This document shows positions 2,359 through 58,056 of a DNA stretch of 64,000 nt, in pieces. Position 1 is the first letter of the stretch. Every line of letters starts with the position of its first letter. The stretch is from Bacteroidales bacterium (GTDB lineage Bacteria > Bacteroidota > Bacteroidia > Bacteroidales > UBA4181): positions 1,663-65,662 of the forward strand of contig JAISCQ010000196.1 of the NCBI GenBank assembly GCA_031265445.1, given 5' to 3'. Position numbers and translations under genes: made by a program. The notes beneath the pieces are model-generated. The model was not told the origin of the DNA. It saw only the letters and a program-made list of their open reading frames with translations, and searched no databases.

Positions 2359-4116
2359 TTATTTCACATTGTACCCTTTATCCTTATCAAATTCCAGAAA
2401 GCTCTCAAAAGAATAGGGCACATCTCCTACTTCGTGAATCCTTTTATAGATCAGCCACCGCGACTGCGCATTATAATAAACCCCCTCGCTTCCAAGGCTT
2501 ACCATGACCGAATGGTCTTCGGGACGCCATATACCTTTGGGTTCATAAAAACCGCCTTCGTAGGCTCCCACCTCTTCGTAACCCGGCAGCCCGATAAAAT
2601 CCTTCCAGGGAACCTGAGTCAGGTCGCTGGTAACGGAAACGTTCCAGCACTGATCGTTTCGCTGATGATCCCGCAGCCCCTCAACGCCTCCCATATAACC
2701 GGGAGTGGAAACATATTCGTCGGCCAGTGACGCAAATGCGTGACCGGTAAATTCATGCGCCATCCAATACGTGCTCACGCCTTCGTCGGTAGAGTATATG
2801 CCTATCCCGCCGCCTACCGCGCTGCCGAAATATGCATAACCGCCGATCATCCCATGACCTACAAAAATCCAGCAAGTGGTGGCGGGCAAACCACCCGGTA
2901 TCGCTTCCCGCGAAACCCGTTTCGCCGCATCAAAATCAGGCCCTACTCCCGAATTAAAAGCGGTTTTCGATCCCCTCACACACACCGACTCTTCCGATTC
3001 GACCACAACCGCATAAACATCGAACATATTCACAAGATCCTTGACAAGAGGGTTTGTTTTCAGAAAACAGTCCGCCAGTTCCCGGCTTACTCTGTCAAAT
3101 ATGCCGTCTCCCTTTTTATTGTCTACCCTGTCAAAGCCGTCTCCGATGATGACCACGGGAACTCCGCTGCCTACGGTATGTTCACTCAGCAGGATATACT
3201 CCTTATGATTCCAATAGTTGCCGGCACAGCCCTGAACAACCGGTATTTCTCTTGTATCGCCGCCCGTAGAAAACGTCAGGGCGCCGGTGCGATCTGAGGT
3301 TCCGGTATTTTCCGACGCGGAAACTTTGATCACCTGGGAGCCTATGCCGGTAGTTTGATCAACCTGTATCCAGTCGTTGCCGGCAACCGTCCACTGTGTG
3401 GACGAAATCACCCGTAATGAGCGGTAATTGCCTTTGTCCGACAAGTCAACCTGTTCGGAACCGAAGGAAAACCGGTTGGCTCCCTTGAGCTGCCTGACCG
3501 AACATGTAGCGCTGCGGGTTGCGGTTTTGAACACAATCTCTCCGTCCCGTATCCCCGAAGTAGTATTCATGCCGGCCGCAACGGTTATTGCAACGCTTCG
3601 TCCTCCGCCTCCTCTCGCAGGAGTTACCGTCAACCAGTCCGACGCTGATTCTAAAGTCCAGTCCGCATCGGATGAAACCGTAAATTTCACCTGATCGCCA
3701 TTATCCAAATCTTTCAGCTCCACTTCTTTTGAGGTGAGCGACAAATTTACCGTTTTCGATTGGGAGACGCTCACGCTTTGCTTGATGCTGCCGGCGATTA
3801 CTACCGCTTCGCCGGTGCGCGCGTCGCCGTCGTTGTTCTGGTCCACCGTTACGGTAACAACCGATTTACCGCTCCCGGTTTCGGGAGATACATGCAGCCA
3901 GCCCTGGTAACTCTGCACTTTCCAGTCGACATTGCTGTTGATCTCAAATGTCACAATTGCAGAGGTGTCGCCTTCAATGACAATCGCTTCCCTGTTGAGC
4001 TTCAGGGAAGGCTGCACGGTATCCTTGTCCTCACAGGCGGTAAAAACACAGAAATTCACTATTCCGGTGAACATAACCAGCGCTAATTTCGCTGCGATCC
4101 TTGACTTCATTTTCAT
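2359..4116 (-). CDS. Surface lipoprotein with three BACON domains and a C-terminal peptidase-M64-like (IgA-peptidase-like) metallohydrolase domain, paralog 1
   Basis: Track ORF 2359..4215, trimmed to ATG 4116 (MKMKSRIAAKLALVMFTGIVNFCVFTAC, lipobox). It has three repeats of the W..Q..WL.V.P..G.G...V.V.V type (BACON-like). The C-terminal domain carries VVIIGDGFDR and WMAHEFTGHAFASLADEY. Confidence 0.8.
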   Translation of the reverse strand: MKMKSRIAAKLALVMFTGIVNFCVFTACEDKDTVQPSLKLNREAIVIEGDTSAIVTFEINSNVDWKVQSYQGWLHVSPETGSGKSVVTVTVDQNNDGDARTGEAVVIAGSIKQSVSVSQSKTVNLSLTSKEVELKDLDNGDQVKFTVSSDADWTLESASDWLTVTPARGGGGRSVAITVAAGMNTTSGIRDGEIVFKTATRSATCSVRQLKGANRFSFGSEQVDLSDKGNYRSLRVISSTQWTVAGNDWIQVDQTTGIGSQVIKVSASENTGTSDRTGALTFSTGGDTREIPVVQGCAGNYWNHKEYILLSEHTVGSGVPVVIIGDGFDRVDNKKGDGIFDRVSRELADCFLKTNPLVKDLVNMFDVYAVVVESEESVCVRGSKTAFNSGVGPDFDAAKRVSREAIPGGLPATTCWIFVGHGMIGGYAYFGSAVGGGIGIYSTDEGVSTYWMAHEFTGHAFASLADEYVSTPGYMGGVEGLRDHQRNDQCWNVSVTSDLTQVPWKDFIGLPGYEEVGAYEGGFYEPKGIWRPEDHSVMVSLGSEGVYYNAQSRWLIYKRIHEVGDVPYSFESFLEFDKDKGYNVK

Positions 4117-4195
4117 TTTCTTCTTCTTGTTATTACTATTAATTATTATTATTATTATTATACTGCGCACGGCGTAATTTTGTGCGATGATTTTT

Positions 4196-4473: not shown

Positions 4474-6231
4474 CTATTTCGATTTCGTATTGTACGGCTT
4501 ATCGAATTCCAGAAAGCTCTCAAAAGTATAGGGTATACCTGCTACTTTGTGAATTCTTTCATAGATAAGCCACCGCGACTGCGCGTTATAATAAATCTCC
4601 CCGTTTCCCGGAAGTCCTACCATGATCGAATGTTCTTCGGGACGCCATATATCTTTGGGTTCATAAAAACCGCCTTCGTAGAAGCCTACCTCTTCGTAAC
4701 CCGGCCGCCCGATAAACCTCCCCCAGGGAGCCTGCTCCGGGTCTGTGGTAACAGAACAGTTCATGCACTGATAACTGTTCTGATACCCTATCAGTGTCGG
4801 AATGCCTCCCATATAACCGGCGTTTACATACTCGTCGGCCAGAGACGCAAATGCGTGACCGGTATATTCATGAGCCATCCAATACGTGCTCACGCCTTCG
4901 TCGGTAGAGTATACGCCTATTCCGCCGCCGTCCCGGTCGCCGAAATATGCATAACCGCCGATCATCCCATGACCTACAAAAATCCATGAAGTGGTGGCCG
5001 GCAAACCCGGTATCGCTTCCTTCGAAAACCGTTTCGCGGCATCGAAATCAACTCCTGTCGGCGCGTTAAAAACAGTCTTCGTTCCCCGCAATACGCCCGT
5101 CTCCGGCGATTCTGCCACAACCGCATAAACATCGAACATATCCGCAAGATCCTTGACAATAGGATTTGTTTTCAGAAAACAGTCCGCCAGTTCCCGGCTT
5201 ACTCTGTCAAATATGCCGTCTACTTTTTTATTGTCCACCCTGTCAAAGCCGTCTCCGATGATGACCAGGGGTACTCCGTTGCCCACGGTATGTTCACTCA
5301 GCCGGATATATTCCTTATTGTTCCAATAATTGCCGGCATAGCCCTGAACAACCGGTATTTCTCTTGTACTGCCGCCCACAGAAAACGTCAGGGCGCCTGT
5401 GCGATCTGAGGTTCCGGTATTTTCCGACAAGGCGGAAACTTTGATCACCTGGGAGCCTATGCCGGTAGCCGGATCAACCTGTATCCAGTCGTTGCCGGTA
5501 ACCGTCCACGGCGTGGACGAAATAACCCGTAAAAAGCGGTAATTGCCTTTGTCCGACAAATCAACCTGTGCGGAACCGAAGGAAAAGCGGTCTGCTCCCT
5601 TGAGCTGCCTGACCGAACACGTAGCGGTGCGGGTTGCGGTTTTGACCACAATCTCTCCGTTTCGTATCCCCGAAGTAGTATTCATGCCGGCCGTAGCAGT
5701 TACTACAACGGTTCTTCCGCCACTCCCTTTCGAAGGAGTCACCGTCAACCAGTCCGCCGTCGATGCTAAGGTCCATTCTACATCGGATGAAACCGTAAGC
5801 GTCACTTGGTCGCCATTATCCAAGTCATTCAGTTCCACTTCTTTTTTGGAAAGCGCCAAATTGATCGTTTTCGATTGGGAAACGCTCACGCTTTGCTTGA
5901 TACTTCCGGCGATCACTACCGCTTCGCCGGTGCGCGCATCGCCGGCGTTGTTCTCGTCCACCGTTACGGTAACAACCGATTTACCGCTCCCGGTTTCGGG
6001 AGATACATGCAGCCAGCCCTGATAACTCTGCACTTTCCAGTCGACATTGCTGTTGATCTCAAATGTCACAACTGCAGAGGTGTCGCCCTCAATGACAATC
6101 GTTTCCCTGTTTAACTTCAGGGAAGGCTGCACGGAATCTTTTTCCTTACAGGCGGTAAAAACACAAAAATTCACTACTCCGGTGAACATGACCAGCGCTA
6201 ACTTCGCTGCGATTTTTGACTTCATTTTCAT
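4474..6231 (-). CDS. Surface lipoprotein with three BACON domains and a C-terminal peptidase-M64-like domain, paralog 2 (tandem duplicate of 2359..4116)
   Basis: 585-aa ORF beginning MKMKSKIAAKLALVMFTGVVNFCVFTAC. It is collinear with paralog 1 and highly similar over the full length. Motifs LVIIGDGFDR and WMAHEYTGHAFASLADEY. Confidence 0.85.
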   Translation of the reverse strand: MKMKSKIAAKLALVMFTGVVNFCVFTACKEKDSVQPSLKLNRETIVIEGDTSAVVTFEINSNVDWKVQSYQGWLHVSPETGSGKSVVTVTVDENNAGDARTGEAVVIAGSIKQSVSVSQSKTINLALSKKEVELNDLDNGDQVTLTVSSDVEWTLASTADWLTVTPSKGSGGRTVVVTATAGMNTTSGIRNGEIVVKTATRTATCSVRQLKGADRFSFGSAQVDLSDKGNYRFLRVISSTPWTVTGNDWIQVDPATGIGSQVIKVSALSENTGTSDRTGALTFSVGGSTREIPVVQGYAGNYWNNKEYIRLSEHTVGNGVPLVIIGDGFDRVDNKKVDGIFDRVSRELADCFLKTNPIVKDLADMFDVYAVVAESPETGVLRGTKTVFNAPTGVDFDAAKRFSKEAIPGLPATTSWIFVGHGMIGGYAYFGDRDGGGIGVYSTDEGVSTYWMAHEYTGHAFASLADEYVNAGYMGGIPTLIGYQNSYQCMNCSVTTDPEQAPWGRFIGRPGYEEVGFYEGGFYEPKDIWRPEEHSIMVGLPGNGEIYYNAQSRWLIYERIHKVAGIPYTFESFLEFDKPYNTKSK

Positions 6232-6413
6232 TTTCTTCTGATTATTGATTGATGTATTAAATTGATATATATAAAGTTATTGACAACTCTGTTTTTGGTT
6301 TCGGATTTGCGGGACGTCTTCGTTCCACATCCTGTGGCGCCACCGTACCACGACCCGTGATAGCATGGGACCATGAGGTATGGTACTTCGCAGGTTCTAT
6401 CCTGCTTCGTATT

Positions 6414-11969: not shown

Positions 11970-12011
11970 GCTTCCCCGACGGGGGAAAGTCCCGGCGAGA
12001 CCTCGCGCATA
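11970..12011 (-). repeat. Single dispersed copy of the 42-bp double-hairpin unit, in inverted orientation relative to the array at 52031..52220
   Basis: The reverse complement GTATGCGCGAGGTCTCGCCGGGACTTTCCCCCGTCGGGGAAGC matches the array unit GTATGCTCGAGGTCTCGTTGGGACTTTCCCCACGAGGGGAAAG. In the protein shadow this reads YARGLAGTFPRRG versus YARGLVGTFPTRG. Confidence 0.8.
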
Positions 12012-12578
12012 CTGGCCGGTTGGCGGCAGGGTATAGCGGATAACGGTCGACTGATGGAACGGGTTGGGGATGTTTTGTTGCAGGGAAGTGCCGCTGTATG
12101 CCGCGTCCTGCAATCCGGGCGACGGTTCTACGGCGTTTTTGCTTCGCAACGCGCCCGACTCGGATCCTTCCCCCAACAGGCCGGAAAGCCGTTCGGTCAA
12201 TTCATCGATCTGTGCCTGCATCTGATCGTTCTGAGCTTGCATCTGCACCTGCAGCCGGTCGTTTTGCTCGCTAAGTTCCTGCACGGCTTTCACCAAAGGA
12301 ACGACAAACTCCGCATACCGCAATCCGTAGATGCCGGTTTCGTCCACATCCACGCTGAAATCGTAATTGGCGCTTTTGGCCGCCTCTTCCACGTCCTGTG
12401 CTATAAAGCCGGTCTGTCCCACTTTTTCTTTAGTTTCCCTTCCTTTTTTCTCGATGTCGATCAATTCCTGAGGTAACGCCTCCTCGCCGGGCCTTTTCTT
12501 TCGGTCGATTTTCAACAGGCCGTCTATGACGTCCAAATCGAGGTGATAGGTAACCGGTTGCAGGCGGTTAGTTTCGTG
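12012..12578 (-). pseudogene. Remnant of the C-terminal part of a protein with a peptidase-S74-like intramolecular-chaperone domain, a coiled coil and the start of a T9SS-type CTD. It has no N-terminus and is truncated at its 3' end by the repeat
   Basis: The frame opens just after TGA at 12581..12579 and has no plausible start. It encodes LQPVTYHLD...GFIAQDVEEAAKS...YGLRYAEFVVPLVKAVQELSEQNDRLQ (S74-like), then LQQNIPNPFHQSTVIRYTLP (CTD-like), interrupted at 12012. It is fused in frame to the next gene only through repeat sequence. Confidence 0.6.
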
Positions 12579-23595: not shown

Positions 23596-23649
<54 letters not shown>

Positions 23650-50491: not shown

Positions 50492-52003
50492 TCAGTTTCC
50501 ACTATTCAATTCTATCGCTTTTCCCTTTGCCGCTTCGGTAAACTCGTACGGTGAAACGTCCACTTTCCCGGAAATAAATTCGGGTATATTGTATGACTTG
50601 GTAGAGAAATCGTAATACATCGGATCTTTTTGAGGCAAAAGGAAAGGAGTGTAAACGTTCCCGTTCGTATCGAAATAGCAGATGTACGGACGTGTGAAGG
50701 CGCCGTCCGCGCGGCGGCTGCCAAAGACCATCCAGCGGCCGTTTGTCGACCATGAGTGATAACTGTCGCTTTGGTCGCTGTTGATTTCCGACAGGTTCCG
50801 GATCTCTTTCGTTTCCAAATTGAGGATATAAAGATCGTTTTCGCGGTGCCAGATGGGGAATGTACCATAGTTGGACATGCAGAAAACCACGTATTTGCCG
50901 TCAGGCGATACGCGTGCCAGCGCAACGCTCTTCCCTGTGCGCGCCGACGACACGAGCGTATCTATCTGCCGGCCGAAACGACTGGCGGAAGCATCGAAGG
51001 CGATGCGCAACAGATCGTAGCGCAACGAGTCATATTCCTGCGGCATGGGGCGTGCAGCGGCGCTGCAAAAGTAAAGATATCGCCCGTCGGGCGACCATTC
51101 GGGGAATGTTTCGAAATATTTTCCGGAATAAATCAGGCTGTCCGTAAAAATGGTATTGGTCTGGATATCGAACACCACGATGTCCGAAGCCTGGTCGTAC
51201 ACTTCCACTTTGTTGGTGAATGCTGTGTGGAACTCTTGCCGTGTCGTGTTGGCCGAGAAAGCCACATAACGTCCGCCGGGATGCCACCGGGGATATACGC
51301 CGGCCGAGAGCATTCCCGGAGCCCGGGTATTGACTTTGCTGATTTTCCCGTCCTTTACAAAGAGCGTTCCGGCATGTTGCTGACGCATATGAAAAAGCAT
51401 CGTTTGCGGGCTATGCCTGCAAAATGAGTGACAGTTCATGCAGTTCCTGTCGGTCAGGCTGTTCACCATGACAGGCGTTTCATCGAAATTTTCCAGGCAG
51501 CGCTGATAAATACCCATCTCGCCCCACACCTCGTAGCCCGGCTCTATCAAACGATAGGCAAGGTACGGATCGACCGGTTCGGGCGCTATGGTAAACCGCA
51601 GCGGGGAGTAACAAACCCATCCGGATGCCCCTTTTGCAAAAATACGGACGCTCATTTGTTCGCCGCGATGCTTTTCCAGCATCTTTTTCCATTTCTGCAA
51701 AGGGATCAACACCTTGCCCCTGCACGAAACATCAAACGAATCTTTTCCCGCAACGGCAAAACGGACGGTAAAGCGCGAGCCTTCCTCGCGGATCATGAAA
51801 TTCAGCGGGGCGATGTTACACGGGATCACTGTTCCCCGGTACGGCGGATAAATATTGGCCTGTTGCCCGATATTGGAGAAGTTGTTGCCCGGCTTGCCGC
51901 AAGCTGATAACAGGAGAAAAAGAAGGAGCCTCACCCCCCAGCCCCCTCTCCTAAGGAGAAGGGGAGCGTGCTTTGCAACGTAATCCGGTAAATTCTCCTT
52001 CAT
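50492..52003 (-). CDS. Lipoprotein with one CXXCH motif and a TolB-like (PD40) beta-propeller
   Basis: Track ORF 50492..52240, trimmed. The first 79 codons are the translated 42-bp repeat. The start is ATG 52003 or, better for a lipoprotein signal, GTG 51934 (MRLLLFLLLSACG). Motifs: NCMNCHSF (CXXCH) and the PD40-like WSPDGRY, VSPDGKY and WSTNGRW. Confidence 0.7.
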   Translation of the reverse strand: MKENLPDYVAKHAPLLLRRGGWGVRLLLFLLLSACGKPGNNFSNIGQQANIYPPYRGTVIPCNIAPLNFMIREEGSRFTVRFAVAGKDSFDVSCRGKVLIPLQKWKKMLEKHRGEQMSVRIFAKGASGWVCYSPLRFTIAPEPVDPYLAYRLIEPGYEVWGEMGIYQRCLENFDETPVMVNSLTDRNCMNCHSFCRHSPQTMLFHMRQQHAGTLFVKDGKISKVNTRAPGMLSAGVYPRWHPGGRYVAFSANTTRQEFHTAFTNKVEVYDQASDIVVFDIQTNTIFTDSLIYSGKYFETFPEWSPDGRYLYFCSAAARPMPQEYDSLRYDLLRIAFDASASRFGRQIDTLVSSARTGKSVALARVSPDGKYVVFCMSNYGTFPIWHRENDLYILNLETKEIRNLSEINSDQSDSYHSWSTNGRWMVFGSRRADGAFTRPYICYFDTNGNVYTPFLLPQKDPMYYDFSTKSYNIPEFISGKVDVSPYEFTEAAKGKAIELNSGN

Positions 52004-52030
52004 ATGAATGTGCTTTATGCCCGGATCACA

Positions 52031-52220
52031 GACTCCCCCGACGGGGGAAAGTGTGCCCGAGGCCTCGTTGGAACTTTCCCCACGTGGGGAAAGTATGCCC
52101 GAGACCTCGTTGGGACTTTCCCCACGAGGGGAATGTATGCTCGAGGTCTCGTTGGGACTTTCCCCACGAGGGGAAAGTATGCTTGAGGCCTCGTTGGGAC
52201 TTTCCCCCGTCGGGGATAGG
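52031..52220. repeat. Tandem array of 4.5 copies of a 42-bp double-hairpin unit (GGACTTTCCCCACGAGGGGAAAGTATGCYCGAGRCCTCGTTG)
   Basis: Units start at 52031 (degenerate), 52071, 52113, 52155 and 52197. Each contains CTTTCCCC-ACGA-GGGGAAAG and the palindrome CGAGGCCTCG. The array starts immediately after the stop at 52221..52223 of the upstream gene. Confidence 0.9.
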
Positions 52221-54098
52221 TTAATATCTGTTCTTTTCATCTTCTTCCTGTAGGATTGCCGGTTTAATGAAATGTATGTAATACCAGTAGGTATTGCCGA
52301 ATTGCTTTTTCAACTGCTCCATATTGCGTTGACTGCTTTGCGCCGCCTTGAATGCCTGTACATACCGGGCGAAACGTTCGCGCGTTGCCCGGCTGACGGG
52401 ATATTGCGCATAGAATTCATCGCCTGCCCGCATCGAATTATGGTATACGGTCAGCGCTTCCTCGTAATGGGTCGGTATGTCCGGGTAATCAAAATTCCCA
52501 TAAAACCGGTCCATGCACCATTTCACCTGTTCCACATCCTTTTGCAGCATATAATAAGCCATCAGGTATTCGAACGCTAAACGGTGCCCGGGGTTCGACT
52601 GCAAGAGCATCAGCAGCGAACGGTCGGGATACTGATAGTGGATGAAGAAATCGCTGTAGCGGCGAGGTGTTGGGATACCCGGAATATGAAAAGTCGAATC
52701 AGCCATTGCCGACGCGAGATTTGCGCGCTGCCGAGTCGCCCATTTCCGGTAAACAAGGCTACGGTCGAAATACCCGAGGTACTTATGAGCGGCTGCCGAG
52801 TCGCGGCGTTCGATGCTGGTTATTACCAGCCGGCACATGGTCTGTGCGTTCGGCTCCTTCGGGTTTGACACCAATGCCTCGAAAGCGCAGTGTTCCGCTT
52901 CGGGGATCATCCCCAGACGGTAATAAACTTCGCCGAGGCACCACAATGAAAAATAGGTCAGTTGCCTGTCCAAAAATAAACCGGCAACGCCTATCTGCCT
53001 GTATTGGAACATCCGGTAGGGCATCTGCCCCGATTCGGCCAGTGCGATATTGGTGAAATAGCAGGCCAGCCGGTTCCTGGCAGGATAGGCTTTGCCCAGC
53101 GCCATCACCGGTTTCCAGTTGCCGTGCTGCACCTCGCAAGTCATCCGGGCGAGCATCTCTTCCCTGTTGCTGTACGCCGAATGAACGGCGCAGGCAGTCG
53201 CCATAACCGCCAGGATGCAGTTGGGAACAAGAATTTTCCAGGGCGCCAACTCCCATCGTCCCGGTTTGCCTGCAACCAGCCTCCAGATAAGGTATAACGC
53301 CGGCAACGAAAGCCACAGCGCCTTACTGGCGATGGTTGGGAAAAAGAAATCCCACGGCGTCAGTGCAAAATATGCTTCGCGGAGGGGGACTGTATAAATC
53401 GTGCGCCAGGCTACCCGGGGTAACCATACGGACACGGCAATCAACGCCAGCAAATAAAGATATTTGCTCCCGACGCTCCATCTCCTGTTGCCTCGCCGAG
53501 GACAACAGGGTGGGGAGAGAGGCTGGCTTAACTCGAAAATGAACATCAGCGCCGACAGCAGCAGAGCGTTCCCTCCGGCGATCAAATACAGGATAGCGAA
53601 CAGTATCAAGCCTGCAAAATACCTTCCCGGCAAGGAGATTGAAATGTACTGTTTGAACCCGGCCAGTGCAAGCAGAAGTCCCAGCGCCGCCGACATGTTG
53701 AAATGGGCATTCGTAAAAGACCCCAAGAGTAAAACGGCAGGGATGAACGGGATGAAGAACAGCCGTCCGATGTTGCCGCAAGCCCGGCAAACAGAGTAGA
53801 AAAGCAGGCAGGCAGCTGCGGTGGCGCCCGCGATGATCATGGAGCCTGCAACGGGATAGAAATAGAACTGCGTGAGAAACGAACCCAGATAACCGGATAA
53901 GCCGCCGGGCCGACCGAGATATGAGCGGAGATACAACCCGTCGAACCGGAAAAGCTGCATCTGCTCGTGATAGAACAGGATGCAATAACGGTTGCAGCCG
54001 TAGACCCACAGCGCCGCAAACACAGCAAACAGGGCGAGCGTGAAGTATATTACCAGGGAATATAATCGGGGGTTGGACATAAAAATCACATTTTGCAC
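52221..54098 (-). CDS. Large polytopic membrane protein with a C-terminal soluble helical-repeat domain (resembles the Bacteroidetes DUF6057-type family; assignment by recall only)
   Basis: 625-aa ORF. About 10 hydrophobic segments lie in the first 330 aa. The remainder is a soluble, helical, TPR-like region (YRLGMIPEAEHCAFEALVSNPKEPNAQ). Confidence 0.7.
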   Translation of the reverse strand: MQNVIFMSNPRLYSLVIYFTLALFAVFAALWVYGCNRYCILFYHEQMQLFRFDGLYLRSYLGRPGGLSGYLGSFLTQFYFYPVAGSMIIAGATAAACLLFYSVCRACGNIGRLFFIPFIPAVLLLGSFTNAHFNMSAALGLLLALAGFKQYISISLPGRYFAGLILFAILYLIAGGNALLLSALMFIFELSQPLSPPCCPRRGNRRWSVGSKYLYLLALIAVSVWLPRVAWRTIYTVPLREAYFALTPWDFFFPTIASKALWLSLPALYLIWRLVAGKPGRWELAPWKILVPNCILAVMATACAVHSAYSNREEMLARMTCEVQHGNWKPVMALGKAYPARNRLACYFTNIALAESGQMPYRMFQYRQIGVAGLFLDRQLTYFSLWCLGEVYYRLGMIPEAEHCAFEALVSNPKEPNAQTMCRLVITSIERRDSAAAHKYLGYFDRSLVYRKWATRQRANLASAMADSTFHIPGIPTPRRYSDFFIHYQYPDRSLLMLLQSNPGHRLAFEYLMAYYMLQKDVEQVKWCMDRFYGNFDYPDIPTHYEEALTVYHNSMRAGDEFYAQYPVSRATRERFARYVQAFKAAQSSQRNMEQLKKQFGNTYWYYIHFIKPAILQEEDEKNRY

Positions 54099-54272
54099 AA
54101 AATTACAAAAAATAAGGAGTGATCATGCAATCCGCGAAATCAAACTGAGGGCTTCGTGCAAATGGTCGCAGGATTCCGCGTTCGGCGGAAAACCGCCAGG
54201 TAATGTGTAAAAAATAAGATGGCAATTATATATAACAGACATGAAAAGTCGGATTTTCATCATCACAAACGA

Positions 54273-54617
54273 CGTTACAGTAACGACGCGGGCATGGTCA
54301 CAGTAATGACGTGGGCATGGTCACAGTAATGACGTGAGCATGGTCACAGTAATGACGTGGGCATGGTCATAGTAATGACGTGGGCATGGTCATAGTAATG
54401 ACGTGAGCATGGTCATAGTAATGACGTGAGCATGGTCATAGTAATGACGCGGGCATGGTCACAGTAATGACGTGAGCATGGTCACAGTAATAACGTGGGC
54501 ATGGTCATAGTAATGACGTGAGCATGGTCAGAGTAATGACGTGAGCATGGTCATAGTTATGACGTGAGCATGGTCATAGTAATGACGTGAGCATGGTCAC
54601 AGTAATGACGTGAGCAG
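54273..54617. repeat. Tandem array of a 23-bp unit GGTCAYAGTAATGACGTGRGCAT: 14 full copies plus 1 degenerate copy, with no spacers
   Basis: Counted directly. The first full unit starts at 54296 and the period is exactly 23 bp. All frames are interrupted by stops, and the track shows no ORF here. Confidence 0.95.
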
Positions 54618-54677
54618 GGACACAAGCGTCACATTCACAGCCGTCATTCCGACGAAAGTCAGGTTGAACGTGAATCC

Positions 54678-55928
54678 TCAAATGATTTGCGGCAGTTTGA
54701 TCATCACCGTAGTGCCGTTGCCGGGAATACTGCTGATTTCCATTTCGCCGCCATGCCGGCTGACGATACCGTACGAAATAGCTAATCCCAGTCCGGTTCC
54801 GTCCTTTTTGGTGGTATAAAACGGGTTGAATACATTTTCGATATCGTTCTCCGGGATGCCTTTGCCCGTATCGGTGAAGGAGAGCAGCAGGTAACGCGAC
54901 CGATAGTCGCGTGAACGCCCGCCTTCAACTATCAGCGTCAGCCGCTTTTCTGCCGGTCTGTCCATAGCTTCCACAGCATTGAGGATTACATTGAGGAACA
55001 CCTGTTTCAACTGCGCCGGATCGGCTATCACGGTCGTTTTTTTGGTACGGATATCGATATGGACTGTTACCTGCTGCTTTACAATCGTATTCCGGAGCAG
55101 CGTCAGCGATTGACGCAGCAGCTGTACGATATTCACGGCGGCGGTTTCCAGTTCCGATGGCTTGGAGAAGGAAAGCATGCCCTGCACGATTTTATTGATG
55201 CGGTCCACTTCTTCCATCAGTTCGTTCATCATCTCCAGCTTATCGGGTTCTCGAATATCTTTACCCATGTATTGTATGGTACTCCGGATGGCTGTCAACG
55301 GATTGCGGATTTCGTGCGCCGCTCCTGCCGCCAGCTGTCCGAGTATTGCCAGCCGGTCGGCACGGTACATCTTTTTAATCCGGGAACTTTGTTCCTCGTA
55401 CAGCGCCGTGTTCTCGACGGCGAAAGCCGCCTGGTCGAACAGCAGGGTGAACAGGTCGATGTCCTGCTTCGTAAAATCGTGATCATCCGCGCGTCTTCCA
55501 AGAAACACGAGGCCGCTTAGCCGGTTCATCACCTTCAACGGATAGATCAGTTCGATCTCCGCATCGCGGATCAGGTTTTGTTCCTGATCGGAGAAGTAGG
55601 GCATAATGCTTTCCGAACGCGACAGTCGGAATACTGTTTCGTTAACCGATAGCCAGTTGACTAATTTGCTGTGGGGCGTGAATGTGACATTGCAGAACAG
55701 ATCATTATTCTGTTGCTTGTCTCCCACACGAAAATATTGTTCCGTATCGGGATTCTGGAGGAAAAAGACGATCCGCTTCACCGGTGAAATCTGCTTGATC
55801 TTAGCGATTGTATTGGCTATCAGCAATTCTTTATCGGCAATCAGCATCAACGAACGGTTGAATTCCGAAAGCATCGTACGTAAAAACACGCTGTCGGGTA
55901 TCCGGTTTTCTTTTTTCAGCAAAGTCAT
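54678..55928 (-). CDS. Cytoplasmic GAF-domain sensor histidine kinase (no adjacent response regulator)
   Basis: 416 aa: H-box AAHEIRNPLTAIRSTIQYM and HATPase_c boxes (NVILNAVEAM, FTDTGKGIP, GTGLGLAISYGIV). No TM segment. Confidence 0.85.
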   Translation of the reverse strand: MTLLKKENRIPDSVFLRTMLSEFNRSLMLIADKELLIANTIAKIKQISPVKRIVFFLQNPDTEQYFRVGDKQQNNDLFCNVTFTPHSKLVNWLSVNETVFRLSRSESIMPYFSDQEQNLIRDAEIELIYPLKVMNRLSGLVFLGRRADDHDFTKQDIDLFTLLFDQAAFAVENTALYEEQSSRIKKMYRADRLAILGQLAAGAAHEIRNPLTAIRSTIQYMGKDIREPDKLEMMNELMEEVDRINKIVQGMLSFSKPSELETAAVNIVQLLRQSLTLLRNTIVKQQVTVHIDIRTKKTTVIADPAQLKQVFLNVILNAVEAMDRPAEKRLTLIVEGGRSRDYRSRYLLLSFTDTGKGIPENDIENVFNPFYTTKKDGTGLGLAISYGIVSRHGGEMEISSIPGNGTTVMIKLPQII

Positions 55929-56244: not shown

Positions 56245-56379
56245 TCCTTTTTGAAAAAAAACAGGAAAAATAATTTATTTTGAATGAGCCGGAAACATTT
56301 TCCAGGTTGTTGTGTTCCTCTATTGCAATAAAGCAGATCACAGGATGTTTGATTTATCAATATTTAAATTGTGCGTGAG

Positions 56380-56775
56380 ATGACAAAAGTAAGAAAAGAG
56401 AAGAAAAAGTTAACCCCTGCAGAGGAGGAAGTCATGCAGGTTTTGTGGAAAATTGAGAAGGGGATTATCAAGGACATTCTCAAAGAGTTTCCAAATCCTA
56501 AACCGGCATACAATACGATTGCTACCGTACTGCGCGTCATGGAGAATAAGGGATTCGTGGCGCATGAGGGAGTTGGGGTTTTTTACCATTTTTATCCGTT
56601 GATCACCAAGCACGCTTATGCCAAATCGCAAGCCAAGAGTTTAATCAAAGCGTATTTTGAGTCGTCGCTGCCAAAGTTAACCGCGGCTTTCGCCAAGGAA
56701 GAGAATTTGTCGCTGGCCGATGTCGAACAGATCAACCAAATTTTTGCCGCCGCCAAAGAAGCTAAAAAGGAGTAG
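56380..56775 (+). CDS. BlaI/MecI/CopY-family transcriptional repressor
   Basis: Winged-helix pattern LTPAEEEVMQVLWK...GIIKDILKEF...AYNTIATVLRVMENKGFV. The start was chosen at ATG 56380. Confidence 0.8.
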   Translation: MTKVRKEKKKLTPAEEEVMQVLWKIEKGIIKDILKEFPNPKPAYNTIATVLRVMENKGFVAHEGVGVFYHFYPLITKHAYAKSQAKSLIKAYFESSLPKLTAAFAKEENLSLADVEQINQIFAAAKEAKKE

Positions 56776-56808
56776 GGTGTTTGTAATTGGTACAAACCAA
56801 AAAGCAAA

Positions 56809-58056
56809 ATGGCCATTTTAGTATATTTGTTGAAAACGACGGCTGTTTTCGTCACGTTGTTTTCATTATATCATATTTTCCTGAAAAACGTCACTTTCCT
56901 GCGGTTAAGACGGTGGTACCTGATCAGTACACTGTTCCTGTCTTTCCTGATCCCCTGGGTGAGTCCGCTGCTTTTGCCGAAATATTACCATTCCGAACCG
57001 GGATCGGTTTTAGCCCGGATCGATGGAGCAGTGCATCGCTTCGCTGTTACGAGTCGGCTAACGGAGTCGTGGGGAAACAGTCTGGCGAATATTCTTGCGA
57101 TTTCGGCGCTGGGAACTGTATTTGTCCTGGTAACCGCCAAGTACGCCTTTATGCTGGGGTCGATGTATCGATTCCTGAAAGAAAGCCGCCTGGTGTCGAA
57201 AAACGAACGATACACGCTCCGTACCGGAAATAAGGGCGAAGGAAGTTTCTGTTTTCTGAAAACGATTTACCTGTATGGCCCTTCGCTGAACGAACAAAAT
57301 CTTCATATGATCCTCGAACATGAAAAAGCGCACATCCGCCAAAAGCATTATATTGATTTGTGGCTTTCGGCGATGTGTGATTATTTCTTTTGGTTTTGCC
57401 CGTTCGCCAAACAATTTCAGGCAGCCTGGGAAGAAGTTCTGGAATGTCTGGCTGACCGCGAAGCCATCCGGACATTGCAAATAGAACCCATTACTTACCA
57501 GTCGGTGTTGTATTCCCACGTAGAATATTCGGGCATGTCGACCACATTCAACAACGGATTCGGGCGGTCGATGATTGCCAGACGGCTGCTGTTTATCTCA
57601 CGAAAACCCGTCAGCATCAGGCGGATCCTGCCGCGTTTATGCTTCAGTTTTGTGGTAGCGGGTATTCTTACCGCAACGCTCGCATTCGTGGATGTCCGGA
57701 TTTTTCAGCTACGGAAAATCAATGAAATACGAAGCGCCGGATACGACCTGCACGAGGTAATCACAGGCTATGTACTCGACAGCGATACGGAAAAACCTGT
57801 TATCGACGCTATTGTCAGGGGAGGCGAGGCTGTTGCTGTTACCGACGGAGACGGATTCTTCTTCATCGAAAAAACATCATCCGGGTTGAGCGTCCAACAC
57901 CTCGCATACAATACGATGTGGGTAAAGGACGAAATCGAGACGGACAATCACGTCATCAAAATGCGGCTGCTTGTGAGAAAGCCGCGACCTGTCGGACTGC
58001 TTGACCCTGTCATGCCTAACGATTCCGACAGGTCTCCGGATTCTTGGGGATCGTGA
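56809..58056 (+). CDS. BlaR1-like M56 peptidase-family membrane sensor with a C-terminal CarboxypepD_reg-like domain
   Basis: 415 aa with TM segments, the motif HMILEHEKAHIRQKHYIDL (HExxH) and a C-terminal ITGYVLDSDTEKPVIDAIVRGGEAVAVTDGDGFFFIE. Confidence 0.8.
   Translation: MAILVYLLKTTAVFVTLFSLYHIFLKNVTFLRLRRWYLISTLFLSFLIPWVSPLLLPKYYHSEPGSVLARIDGAVHRFAVTSRLTESWGNSLANILAISALGTVFVLVTAKYAFMLGSMYRFLKESRLVSKNERYTLRTGNKGEGSFCFLKTIYLYGPSLNEQNLHMILEHEKAHIRQKHYIDLWLSAMCDYFFWFCPFAKQFQAAWEEVLECLADREAIRTLQIEPITYQSVLYSHVEYSGMSTTFNNGFGRSMIARRLLFISRKPVSIRRILPRLCFSFVVAGILTATLAFVDVRIFQLRKINEIRSAGYDLHEVITGYVLDSDTEKPVIDAIVRGGEAVAVTDGDGFFFIEKTSSGLSVQHLAYNTMWVKDEIETDNHVIKMRLLVRKPRPVGLLDPVMPNDSDRSPDSWGS

Follow-up and report, generated by a model that had tools for sequence, protein, structure and literature searches.

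A probable lineage-specific minisatellite of 23-bp units between a histidine kinase gene and a DUF6057 gene in an uncultured Bacteroidales genome

Introduction

Does a long run of near-identical 23-bp units, set upstream of the gene for a large membrane protein, serve as a platform for a regulator, or is it a repeat that its neighbours can do without? The question is raised by a locus in a 64,000-nt stretch of contig JAISCQ010000196.1 (assembly GCA_031265445.1, Bacteroidales bacterium), hereafter the window, where such an array lies between the gene for a GAF-domain histidine kinase and that for a DUF6057 membrane protein. A first-pass annotation, made from the letters alone, had likened the array to iterons or to a multi-operator array on which many copies of a dimeric protein would line up along a single helix face, and had offered a copy-number-variable spacer as the alternative. 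We conclude that the array is probably a lineage-specific, non-coding minisatellite of the variable-number tandem repeat (VNTR) type, housed in a dispensable 476-nt segment of the kinase-DUF6057 spacer. Sequence comparison suggests that it is most likely not a conserved protein-loading or operator array.

Structure of the array

Tandem Repeats Finder called one array at the locus, at 54277-54624 (period 23, 15.1 copies, 92% matches, 0% indels, score 549), and alignment of the units in register gave the following features.

54296-54617: 14 contiguous full 23-bp units, consensus GGTCAYAGTAATGACGTGRGCAT on the plus strand and ATGCYCACGTCATTACTRTGACC on the minus strand, each with at most one mismatch, at an exact period and without indels
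54273-54295: degenerate edge unit on the DUF6057 side, in register, 19 of 23 positions matching the consensus
54618-54640: decayed sixteenth unit on the kinase side, in register, 12 of 23 positions matching (P of a score of at least 12 about 0.007 for random 23-mers of the window)

Searched as a pattern with at most one mismatch, GGTCAYAGTAATGACGTGRGCAT was found 14 times in the 64 kb, all contiguous, and not once in 100 shuffles. The minus strand of the array, which reads ATGCYCACGTCATTACTRTGACC, is the sense strand of both flanking genes. Units abut without spacers at an exact 23-bp period, the array is intergenic, lying between two called genes, and all six reading frames are closed, the longest open stretch being 22 codons. 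A minisatellite is defined by a head-to-tail unit of 10-100 bp in several copies far beyond chance, and by the lack of translation; the array has all of these properties.

Variation among the units is confined to few positions. Position 6 is C in seven units, T in seven and G in one, position 19 is G or A, and the rest amounts to four singleton changes; most changes are transitions. Since variant units are interspersed, the longest exact repeat inside the array is only 43 nt. The first-pass account of the array itself is therefore sustained: it had described 14 full units and one degenerate unit with these same variable positions, had recognised the array as non-coding and, for want of spacers, as distinct from clustered regularly interspaced short palindromic repeats (CRISPR), and had taken it for a structured series of variants rather than a fresh slippage product.

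A close relative lacks the array and its flanks

A homology search with the kinase recovered a JGI metagenome contig (L011, sample 3300042612) that carries a kinase of 95% amino acid identity and, downstream in the same orientation, 245 codons from the start of a DUF6057 gene, also 95% identical. There the spacer between the two genes is 111 nt. BLASTN aligned L011 3141-4465 with window positions 55997-54672 at 94.5% identity and L011 4474-5306 with 54195-53363 at 96.9% identity. The window sequence left between these alignments consists of a 54-nt kinase-side flank, whose array-proximal 23 nt are the decayed copy, the 345-nt array and a 77-nt tail.

54196-54671: presence/absence segment of 476 nt, the array with its unique flanks, replaced in L011 by the 8 nt TGCCTTAA
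54641-54671, minus strand: unique leader, placed after the kinase stop and ahead of the decayed unit, with no second copy in the window
54196-54272, minus strand: unique 77-nt tail, its end formed by TTGCCATCTTATTTTTTACACATTACC (54199-54225), a motif found again at other sites in relatives

As the unique flanks are absent together with the units, the short spacer of L011 reflects true absence and not a collapsed repeat. The first-pass annotation had made its regulatory interpretation depend on whether close relatives retain the array, and on this point the comparison goes half of the way against it: the array and its flanks are gone from L011, where both genes and the proximal promoter region are kept.

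Compared with the empty site in L011, the junctions of the segment show neither a terminal inverted repeat nor a clean target-site duplication. They consist of eight to nine scrambled bases, with a short ACCTG direct repeat near each end. Such junctions do not fit a generic MITE (miniature inverted-repeat transposable element). A perfect GC hairpin, GGCGG-TTTT-CCGCC, straddles the DUF6057-side junction (54184-54197, minus strand), its first two G's lying inside the segment; in L011 its stem is only 3 bp, and it is followed by no T-tract, so it is not a classical terminator.

Flanking genes and promoter region

Both flanking genes, and the one recognisable promoter element between them, are on the minus strand.

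54678-55928, minus strand: GAF-HisKA-HATPase_c histidine kinase gene, upstream of the array
52221-54080, minus strand: DUF6057 polytopic membrane-protein gene (PF19529, E = 7e-123), 619 aa from ATG 54080, downstream of the array
54098-54105, minus strand: TAATTTTG, a Bacteroidetes-type -7 box (TAnnTTTG) located 17 nt upstream of ATG 54080, within the stretch that is conserved in the array-less relative

In the public gene call the DUF6057 protein begins at ATG 54080 and has 619 aa. The open reading frame (ORF) of the window, 52221-54098, begins at GTG 54098, which falls inside the promoter box, at the last base of TAATTTTG on the minus strand. TAnnTTTG is the -7 promoter consensus of the Bacteroides sigma factor sigma-ABfr. 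TAATTTTG, the sole match to TAnnTTTG on either strand of the whole 580-nt kinase-DUF6057 spacer, is the likely promoter box of the DUF6057 gene. The 96 nt that separate the segment from the start of DUF6057, box included, are conserved in L011, with seven differences counted from the alignment (about 93% identity).

The array starts 168 nt upstream of this box and 193 nt upstream of ATG 54080; the first-pass annotation had named both neighbouring genes correctly and had put the distance to the start codon at 175 nt. Its second proposal, the copy-number-variable spacer, comes closer to the evidence, in that presence and absence of the array are seen. The altered promoter geometry that it attached to this proposal is unlikely, since the sole recognisable promoter box lies in the conserved proximal part of the spacer. 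The array is probably not required for the neighbouring genes. A search of the minus strand between the kinase stop and the array found no terminator-like site.

Downstream of DUF6057 the next gene encodes a PD40/Tricorn-like lipoprotein, and the wider context is one of chromosomal housekeeping (tyrS, efp, upp, a CDF transporter and a BlaI/BlaR pair), with no replication or replication-initiator gene among the neighbours of the array. TyrRS and kinase homologues place the host among uncultured Bacteroidales; the nearest named kinase matches, at about 65-68% identity, are Tannerella and Tannerellaceae metagenome-assembled genomes (MAGs). Divergent from the kinase gene is the pair at 56371-58056, comprising a BlaI-type repressor (56371-56775; PF03965, E = 8e-26) and, after it, a membrane sensor that is BlaR1/M56-like and has a CarboxypepD_reg-like domain. 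The BlaI gene, 1.7 kb off, is the DNA-binding protein gene nearest to the array, and no link between the two was seen.

The 3' side of the kinase gene differs among its homologues. The kinase is an orphan in the window, and the 78%-identical homologue on L014 has a sigma-54-dependent response regulator 127 nt later (L014 6001-8764). This regulator prompted a check for a sigma-54 promoter or enhancer-binding site, which was rejected by eye, as the sole GG...GC candidate, TGGCGGTTTTCCGCC, is wrongly spaced and forms a hairpin. On L012 and L013 other genes follow the kinase, and homology with L012 stops exactly at the kinase stop codon. The 3' side of the kinase gene is a recurrent rearrangement junction. 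Directly after the stop of a 79%-identical kinase on L108 stands an 11-bp tandem repeat, AATCACAACTG, in about 3.5 copies (2215-2255), and two lineages hence carry unrelated tandem repeats at the one position 3' of this kinase.

Occurrence of the unit and the segment elsewhere

The unit was searched for in the window and in other sequence collections. No further match was present in the rest of the 64-kb window at up to three mismatches. Wider scans used a 21-nt pattern, GTAATGACGTGNGCATGGTCA, that covers the best-conserved part of the unit. Across one genome per species (185,579 species) it was matched twice, singly, in an actinomycete and in a gammaproteobacterial MAG, and both matches were judged to be due to chance; no match was found in JGI metagenomes or in viral contigs. 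These near-empty scans place the unit outside any detectable dispersed family. BLAST of the whole 476-nt segment against 72,556 plasmids and 50,697 phages returned nothing. Apart from the two chance matches, neither the neighbourhood of the array nor any of these collections contained a further copy of the site.

Other relatives were less informative about the locus itself. The array is absent at DUF6057 loci of 63-66% identity (L005, L006 and L007), which are too distant for alignment of non-coding sequence. Contigs of relatives found through TyrRS (95-97% identity; L008-L010) stop short of the locus or are non-syntenic, and the kinase relatives on L012-L014 (87% and 78%) and L108 (79%) have different downstream neighbours. 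On two termite-gut-type contigs the DUF6057 orthologue has, about 300 nt upstream, a (TC)20.5 tract without any mismatch (L006 5660-5700 and L007 2681-2721).

The end of the tail was seen again. TTGCCATCTTATTTTTTACACATTACC recurs in an intergenic position on L011 (676-705), at L012 1-21 and on the gut-metagenome contigs L049 and L081; on L011 and L081 its reverse complement stands 30-55 nt after the stop codon of a gene. A metagenome scan with the tail-end motif TTGCCATNTTATTTTTTACA gave 92 matches. Most were chance occurrences in AT-rich DNA, and no tandem array accompanied any of them. A few matches of gut origin share an extended motif (...ACAYRTTAC), the extended consensus in these gut-metagenome contigs being TTGCCATNTTATTTTTTACAYRTTACTAA. 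Rfam gave nothing credible for the motif.

Reality of the array in the reads

Tandem repeats are a classic source of misassembly, and the sole other assembly of the strain, from Logan (run SRR14710922), fails to cross the array. It is nevertheless most improbable that the assembler created or over-expanded the array. The k=31 Logan contig L001 breaks off at 54620, three bases past the final full unit, which is the graph branch expected of a real repeat; the break at the array edge argues that the array is real in the reads, of a run that is possibly not independent of the source of the window. Moreover, with interspersed variants and no exact repeat above 43 nt, ordinary reads or larger k-mers can order the units uniquely, and the variant pattern is unlike that of a collapsed or looped assembly.

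On the other side, the k=31 Logan contig with DUF6057 (L004) does not break at the array edge: it begins at 54230, which falls in the unique tail, 43 nt short of the array. Such a start may stem from a variant allele co-occurring in the sample or from a drop in coverage.

Protein-binding and RNA readings

Each unit holds a short dyad, GTCAT-N4-ATGAC, which recurs as ATGAC-N9-GTCAT over the unit junctions, and the array stands upstream of a gene on the same strand as its other neighbour. A dimeric DNA-binding protein could accordingly be imagined to occupy many such sites, as on an operator or an iteron-like platform, and to control DUF6057 or local DNA transactions; a BlaI-type repressor is even encoded 1.7 kb off (56371-56775), though nothing ties BlaI to the site. 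We regard this, the first reading of the first-pass annotation, as very unlikely. The array is missing from the 95-97% identical L011, which keeps the gene and the promoter box. The dyad is perfect in seven of the 15 units, the T variants, and its variable base, position 6, is the most variable of the unit, the opposite of what selection on a binding site would leave. An equally good dyad arises readily by chance: when units were shuffled and set in tandem, 10.7% had an inverted repeat that was perfect over 5 bp or more and enclosed a loop no longer than 12 nt. One shared face of the helix is likewise not what the period provides, as 23 bp make 2.19 turns at 10.5 bp per turn, a rotation of about 69 degrees per unit, such that the units regain one face only about every five units. 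To this can be added that no single site occurs elsewhere in the 64 kb, that the context is housekeeping (tyrS, efp, upp) without a replication-initiator gene, and that nothing matches in 72,556 plasmids. An iteron array or replication origin was rejected for related reasons, there being no rep gene (the neighbours are the histidine kinase, DUF6057, PD40 protein, upp, CDF transporter, efp, tyrS and BlaI/BlaR genes) and no similarity to plasmids or phages. The anatomy of the array rules out CRISPR, oriC and coding readings.

In favour of the minisatellite reading, the unit variation looks neutral: its most variable position is in a dyad arm, the changes are mostly transitions, and the edges have decayed.

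Action at the RNA level was weighed in the same way. Read-through from the kinase, unhindered by any terminator-like site found on the minus strand between the kinase stop and the array, would yield 15 tandem minus-strand hairpins (GUCAU-UACU-RUGAC) that might attenuate, terminate or stabilise the transcript entering DUF6057. Compared with shuffled sequence, the array folds more stably as RNA on the minus strand (z = -3.0), which would suit this proposal, yet the plus strand does so even better (z = -4.8), leaving no strandedness; folding better than shuffles, with no strand preference, is what is expected of any tandem unit with a dyad. Read by eye, the common C/T variant and the ATAAC variant keep their pairing by G-U wobble on the minus-strand RNA and break it on the plus strand. 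This argument amounts to two or three independent transitions, with the G at position 6 breaking the pair, and carries little weight. The stems are of 5 bp and marginal in stability, covariance models of Rfam gave no match to either strand of 53500-55500 at E <= 1, and L011 has no array at all. Taken together, these points make the RNA reading highly improbable.

Origin of the array and points against a neutral repeat

Read as a minisatellite, the array would have started from a 23-bp duplication. It would then have grown by slippage during replication, or by unequal exchange between units on sister strands, and the internal dyad, with its alternating GTCAT and ATGAC arms, may favour misaligned hairpin intermediates. 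Point mutations, mostly transitions, would have accumulated and spread by further block duplications; mutation and block duplication together could produce the interspersed C/T and G/A variants and the decayed edge copies. At most, the segment would be expected to lengthen the spacer by about 470 nt and to add a hairpin-prone stretch to a kinase read-through transcript. Slippage as the origin, and neutrality, are both probable.

Several observations weigh against this reading. The comparison with close relatives is a comparison with one, L011, with which insertion here and deletion there are both compatible, as no outgroup keeps the kinase next to DUF6057. What varies is the presence of the whole segment versus its absence in L011, and not a graded copy number. 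The 54 nt and 77 nt of unique, non-repetitive flank are unexplained by pure local slippage and fit an inserted element. We also count the folding stability of the array (z = -3.0 and -4.8) on this side, and the array may have a modulatory effect on DUF6057 or on kinase read-through.

Other repeats in the window

The 23-bp array is not the only tandem repeat beside DUF6057. A second array, at 52037-52207 (42 bp x 4.1, 90% matches), directly follows the DUF6057 stop (52221), and its unit holds the hairpin CCCCACGAGG...CCTCGTTGGG. It lies within the first 95 codons of the ORF 50492-52240, and the 77%-identical PD40 orthologue begins at the equivalent of residue 96. Hence the 42-bp array is probably non-coding, an insertion of about 265 nt that parts two genes whose counterparts in relatives overlap. 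A single copy of the unit also stands at 11973-12012, which makes the 42-bp unit a dispersed repeat.

A perfect (CT)24 tract was found at 23598-23645. Dinucleotide microsatellites of such length are uncommon among bacteria and might be prone to slippage. The occurrence of this tract and of the 42 bp x 4.1 array in the same 64 kb argues that the genome tolerates or generates such repeats, in line with a minisatellite. Near the window start, identical short matches are spaced 2,115 bp apart, namely GACACCTCTGCA at 3958-3969 and 6073-6084 and (TTCATT) x 2.5 at 4106-4120 and 6221-6235. These pairs indicate a duplicated segment of at least about 160 bp.

Comparison with known repeat systems

Iterons usually number 3-7 and have as neighbours a rep gene and an AT-rich stretch that contains DnaA boxes. 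The array resembles them, and multi-operator arrays, in consisting of direct repeats some 20 bp long, all of them with a dyad that a protein might bind, and differs in having 15-16 contiguous copies, a chromosomal position, no rep gene, no plasmid or phage match, a period off the helix phase, and in its absence from L011. With CRISPR it shares a unit length within the repeat range and partial dyad symmetry; spacers, the defining feature, are lacking altogether.

A better fit is offered by the generic intergenic minisatellites of bacteria, the VNTR loci used in multiple-locus VNTR analysis (MLVA) typing and exemplified by the mycobacterial interspersed repetitive units (MIRU), which are non-coding, polymorphic, head-to-tail units of 10-100 bp for which no conserved function is required. 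Like these, the array is head-to-tail and non-coding, has interspersed variants and decayed edge copies, and differs in presence between close relatives. VNTR loci are defined by graded variation in copy number, whereas here the whole segment is present or absent.

The closest precedent is BrickBuilt, a minisatellite/MITE of Porphyromonas gingivalis and P. gulae (Klein et al. 2015, Mobile DNA 6:18; PMC4596501). BrickBuilt arrays consist of spacer-less, imperfect 23-nt units with fixed variable positions, 0-11% mismatches and 1-22.8 copies per array, are always intergenic at 49-591 nt from coding sequences, and are bordered by a non-repetitive leader and tail (PMC4596501). They are found only in those two species, at about 19 copies per P. 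gingivalis genome, vary in copy number and presence by strain, give rise to assembly gaps, and have predicted stem-loops without an Rfam match (PMC4596501). The first-pass annotation had known of no described Bacteroidetes element with this unit; that is correct for the unit sequence and missed this spacer-less 23-nt precedent (PMC4596501).

The likeness is extensive. Both have a Bacteroidales host, an exact 23-nt period without spacers, an intergenic position, imperfect units with fixed variable positions, non-repetitive flanks on both sides and an occurrence limited to a single species group; in both, presence varies between close relatives, the array breaks assembly, and stem-loop potential goes with the lack of an Rfam match. 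As a published case from the same order and of the same period, BrickBuilt counts in favour of the minisatellite reading. The differences lie in sequence, number and flanks. The BrickBuilt unit, AGAYCATARTATCCTCTCRTRTG, and the unit here, GGTCAYAGTAATGACGTGRGCAT, agree at best at 11 of 23 positions in a cyclic two-strand comparison (P = 0.55), on which homology of the two was rejected statistically; all that they share is the 7-mer CATAGTA (P = 0.06). In the 64 kb of genome covered there is one array of this unit, compared with about 19 per P. gingivalis genome, and its flanks are 54 and 77 nt, compared with up to 285 and 318 nt.

Whether the segment as a whole could be a BrickBuilt-type non-autonomous mobile element, inserted between kinase and DUF6057 and mobilised in trans by a transposase, turns on its ends. 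Its layout of unique leader, spacer-less 23-nt array and unique tail is that of BrickBuilt, and the final ~27 nt of its tail reappear at an unrelated L011 locus (676-701; 88% over 26 nt, E = 0.004 in a database of about 125 kb) and at the very start of contig L012. Against mobility, terminal inverted repeats are wanting: the best flanking inverted pair matches at 70% over 27 nt and reaches outside the segment into sequence shared with the empty site. IS5-type insertion sequence ends (GAGACCTTYGCA ... TGCAAAGGTCTC, searched as GAGACCTTTGCA with at most two mismatches) were not found within 2 kb of the array, and the five matches in the whole window equal the chance expectation. The junction is scrambled and has no clean target-site duplication, array, leader and tail each occur once in the window, the unit shows no significant similarity to that of BrickBuilt, and the metagenome matches of the tail motif were mostly chance and none of them beside arrays. 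We therefore consider a mobile element of this type unlikely.

P. gingivalis also carries a 41-nt minisatellite element, PgRS. The pairing of 23-bp and 42-bp arrays around the DUF6057 gene parallels the 23-nt and 41-nt elements of that species; this parallel, and the flanking of the same gene by the 42-bp array, with its unit copy at 11973-12012, can also be cited for mobility. A bolder proposal is that the segment represents a new family of elements, mobile or recombinogenic, that carry minisatellites in one uncultured Bacteroidales lineage, or that a shared mechanism independent of unit sequence underlies the 23-nt and the 41-42-nt periods. We hold this to be quite unlikely. If 23-bp and ~41-42-bp periods turned out to recur in two lineages of Bacteroidales by more than coincidence, they would suggest a shared repeat-generating mechanism that deserves study.

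The scientific weight of the locus is small. It provides a second spacer-less 23-bp intergenic minisatellite in Bacteroidales, with an unrelated unit, where such arrays had previously been described only for Porphyromonas. Arrays of this kind can come or go between genomes of about 95-97% identity with flanking genes and promoter undisturbed. In practical terms, the array breaks short-read (k=31) assembly exactly at its edge and could serve as a strain marker. Membership of the BrickBuilt family is not borne out, but in its workings the array is BrickBuilt-like, and it is an addition to the generic class of bacterial intergenic minisatellites.

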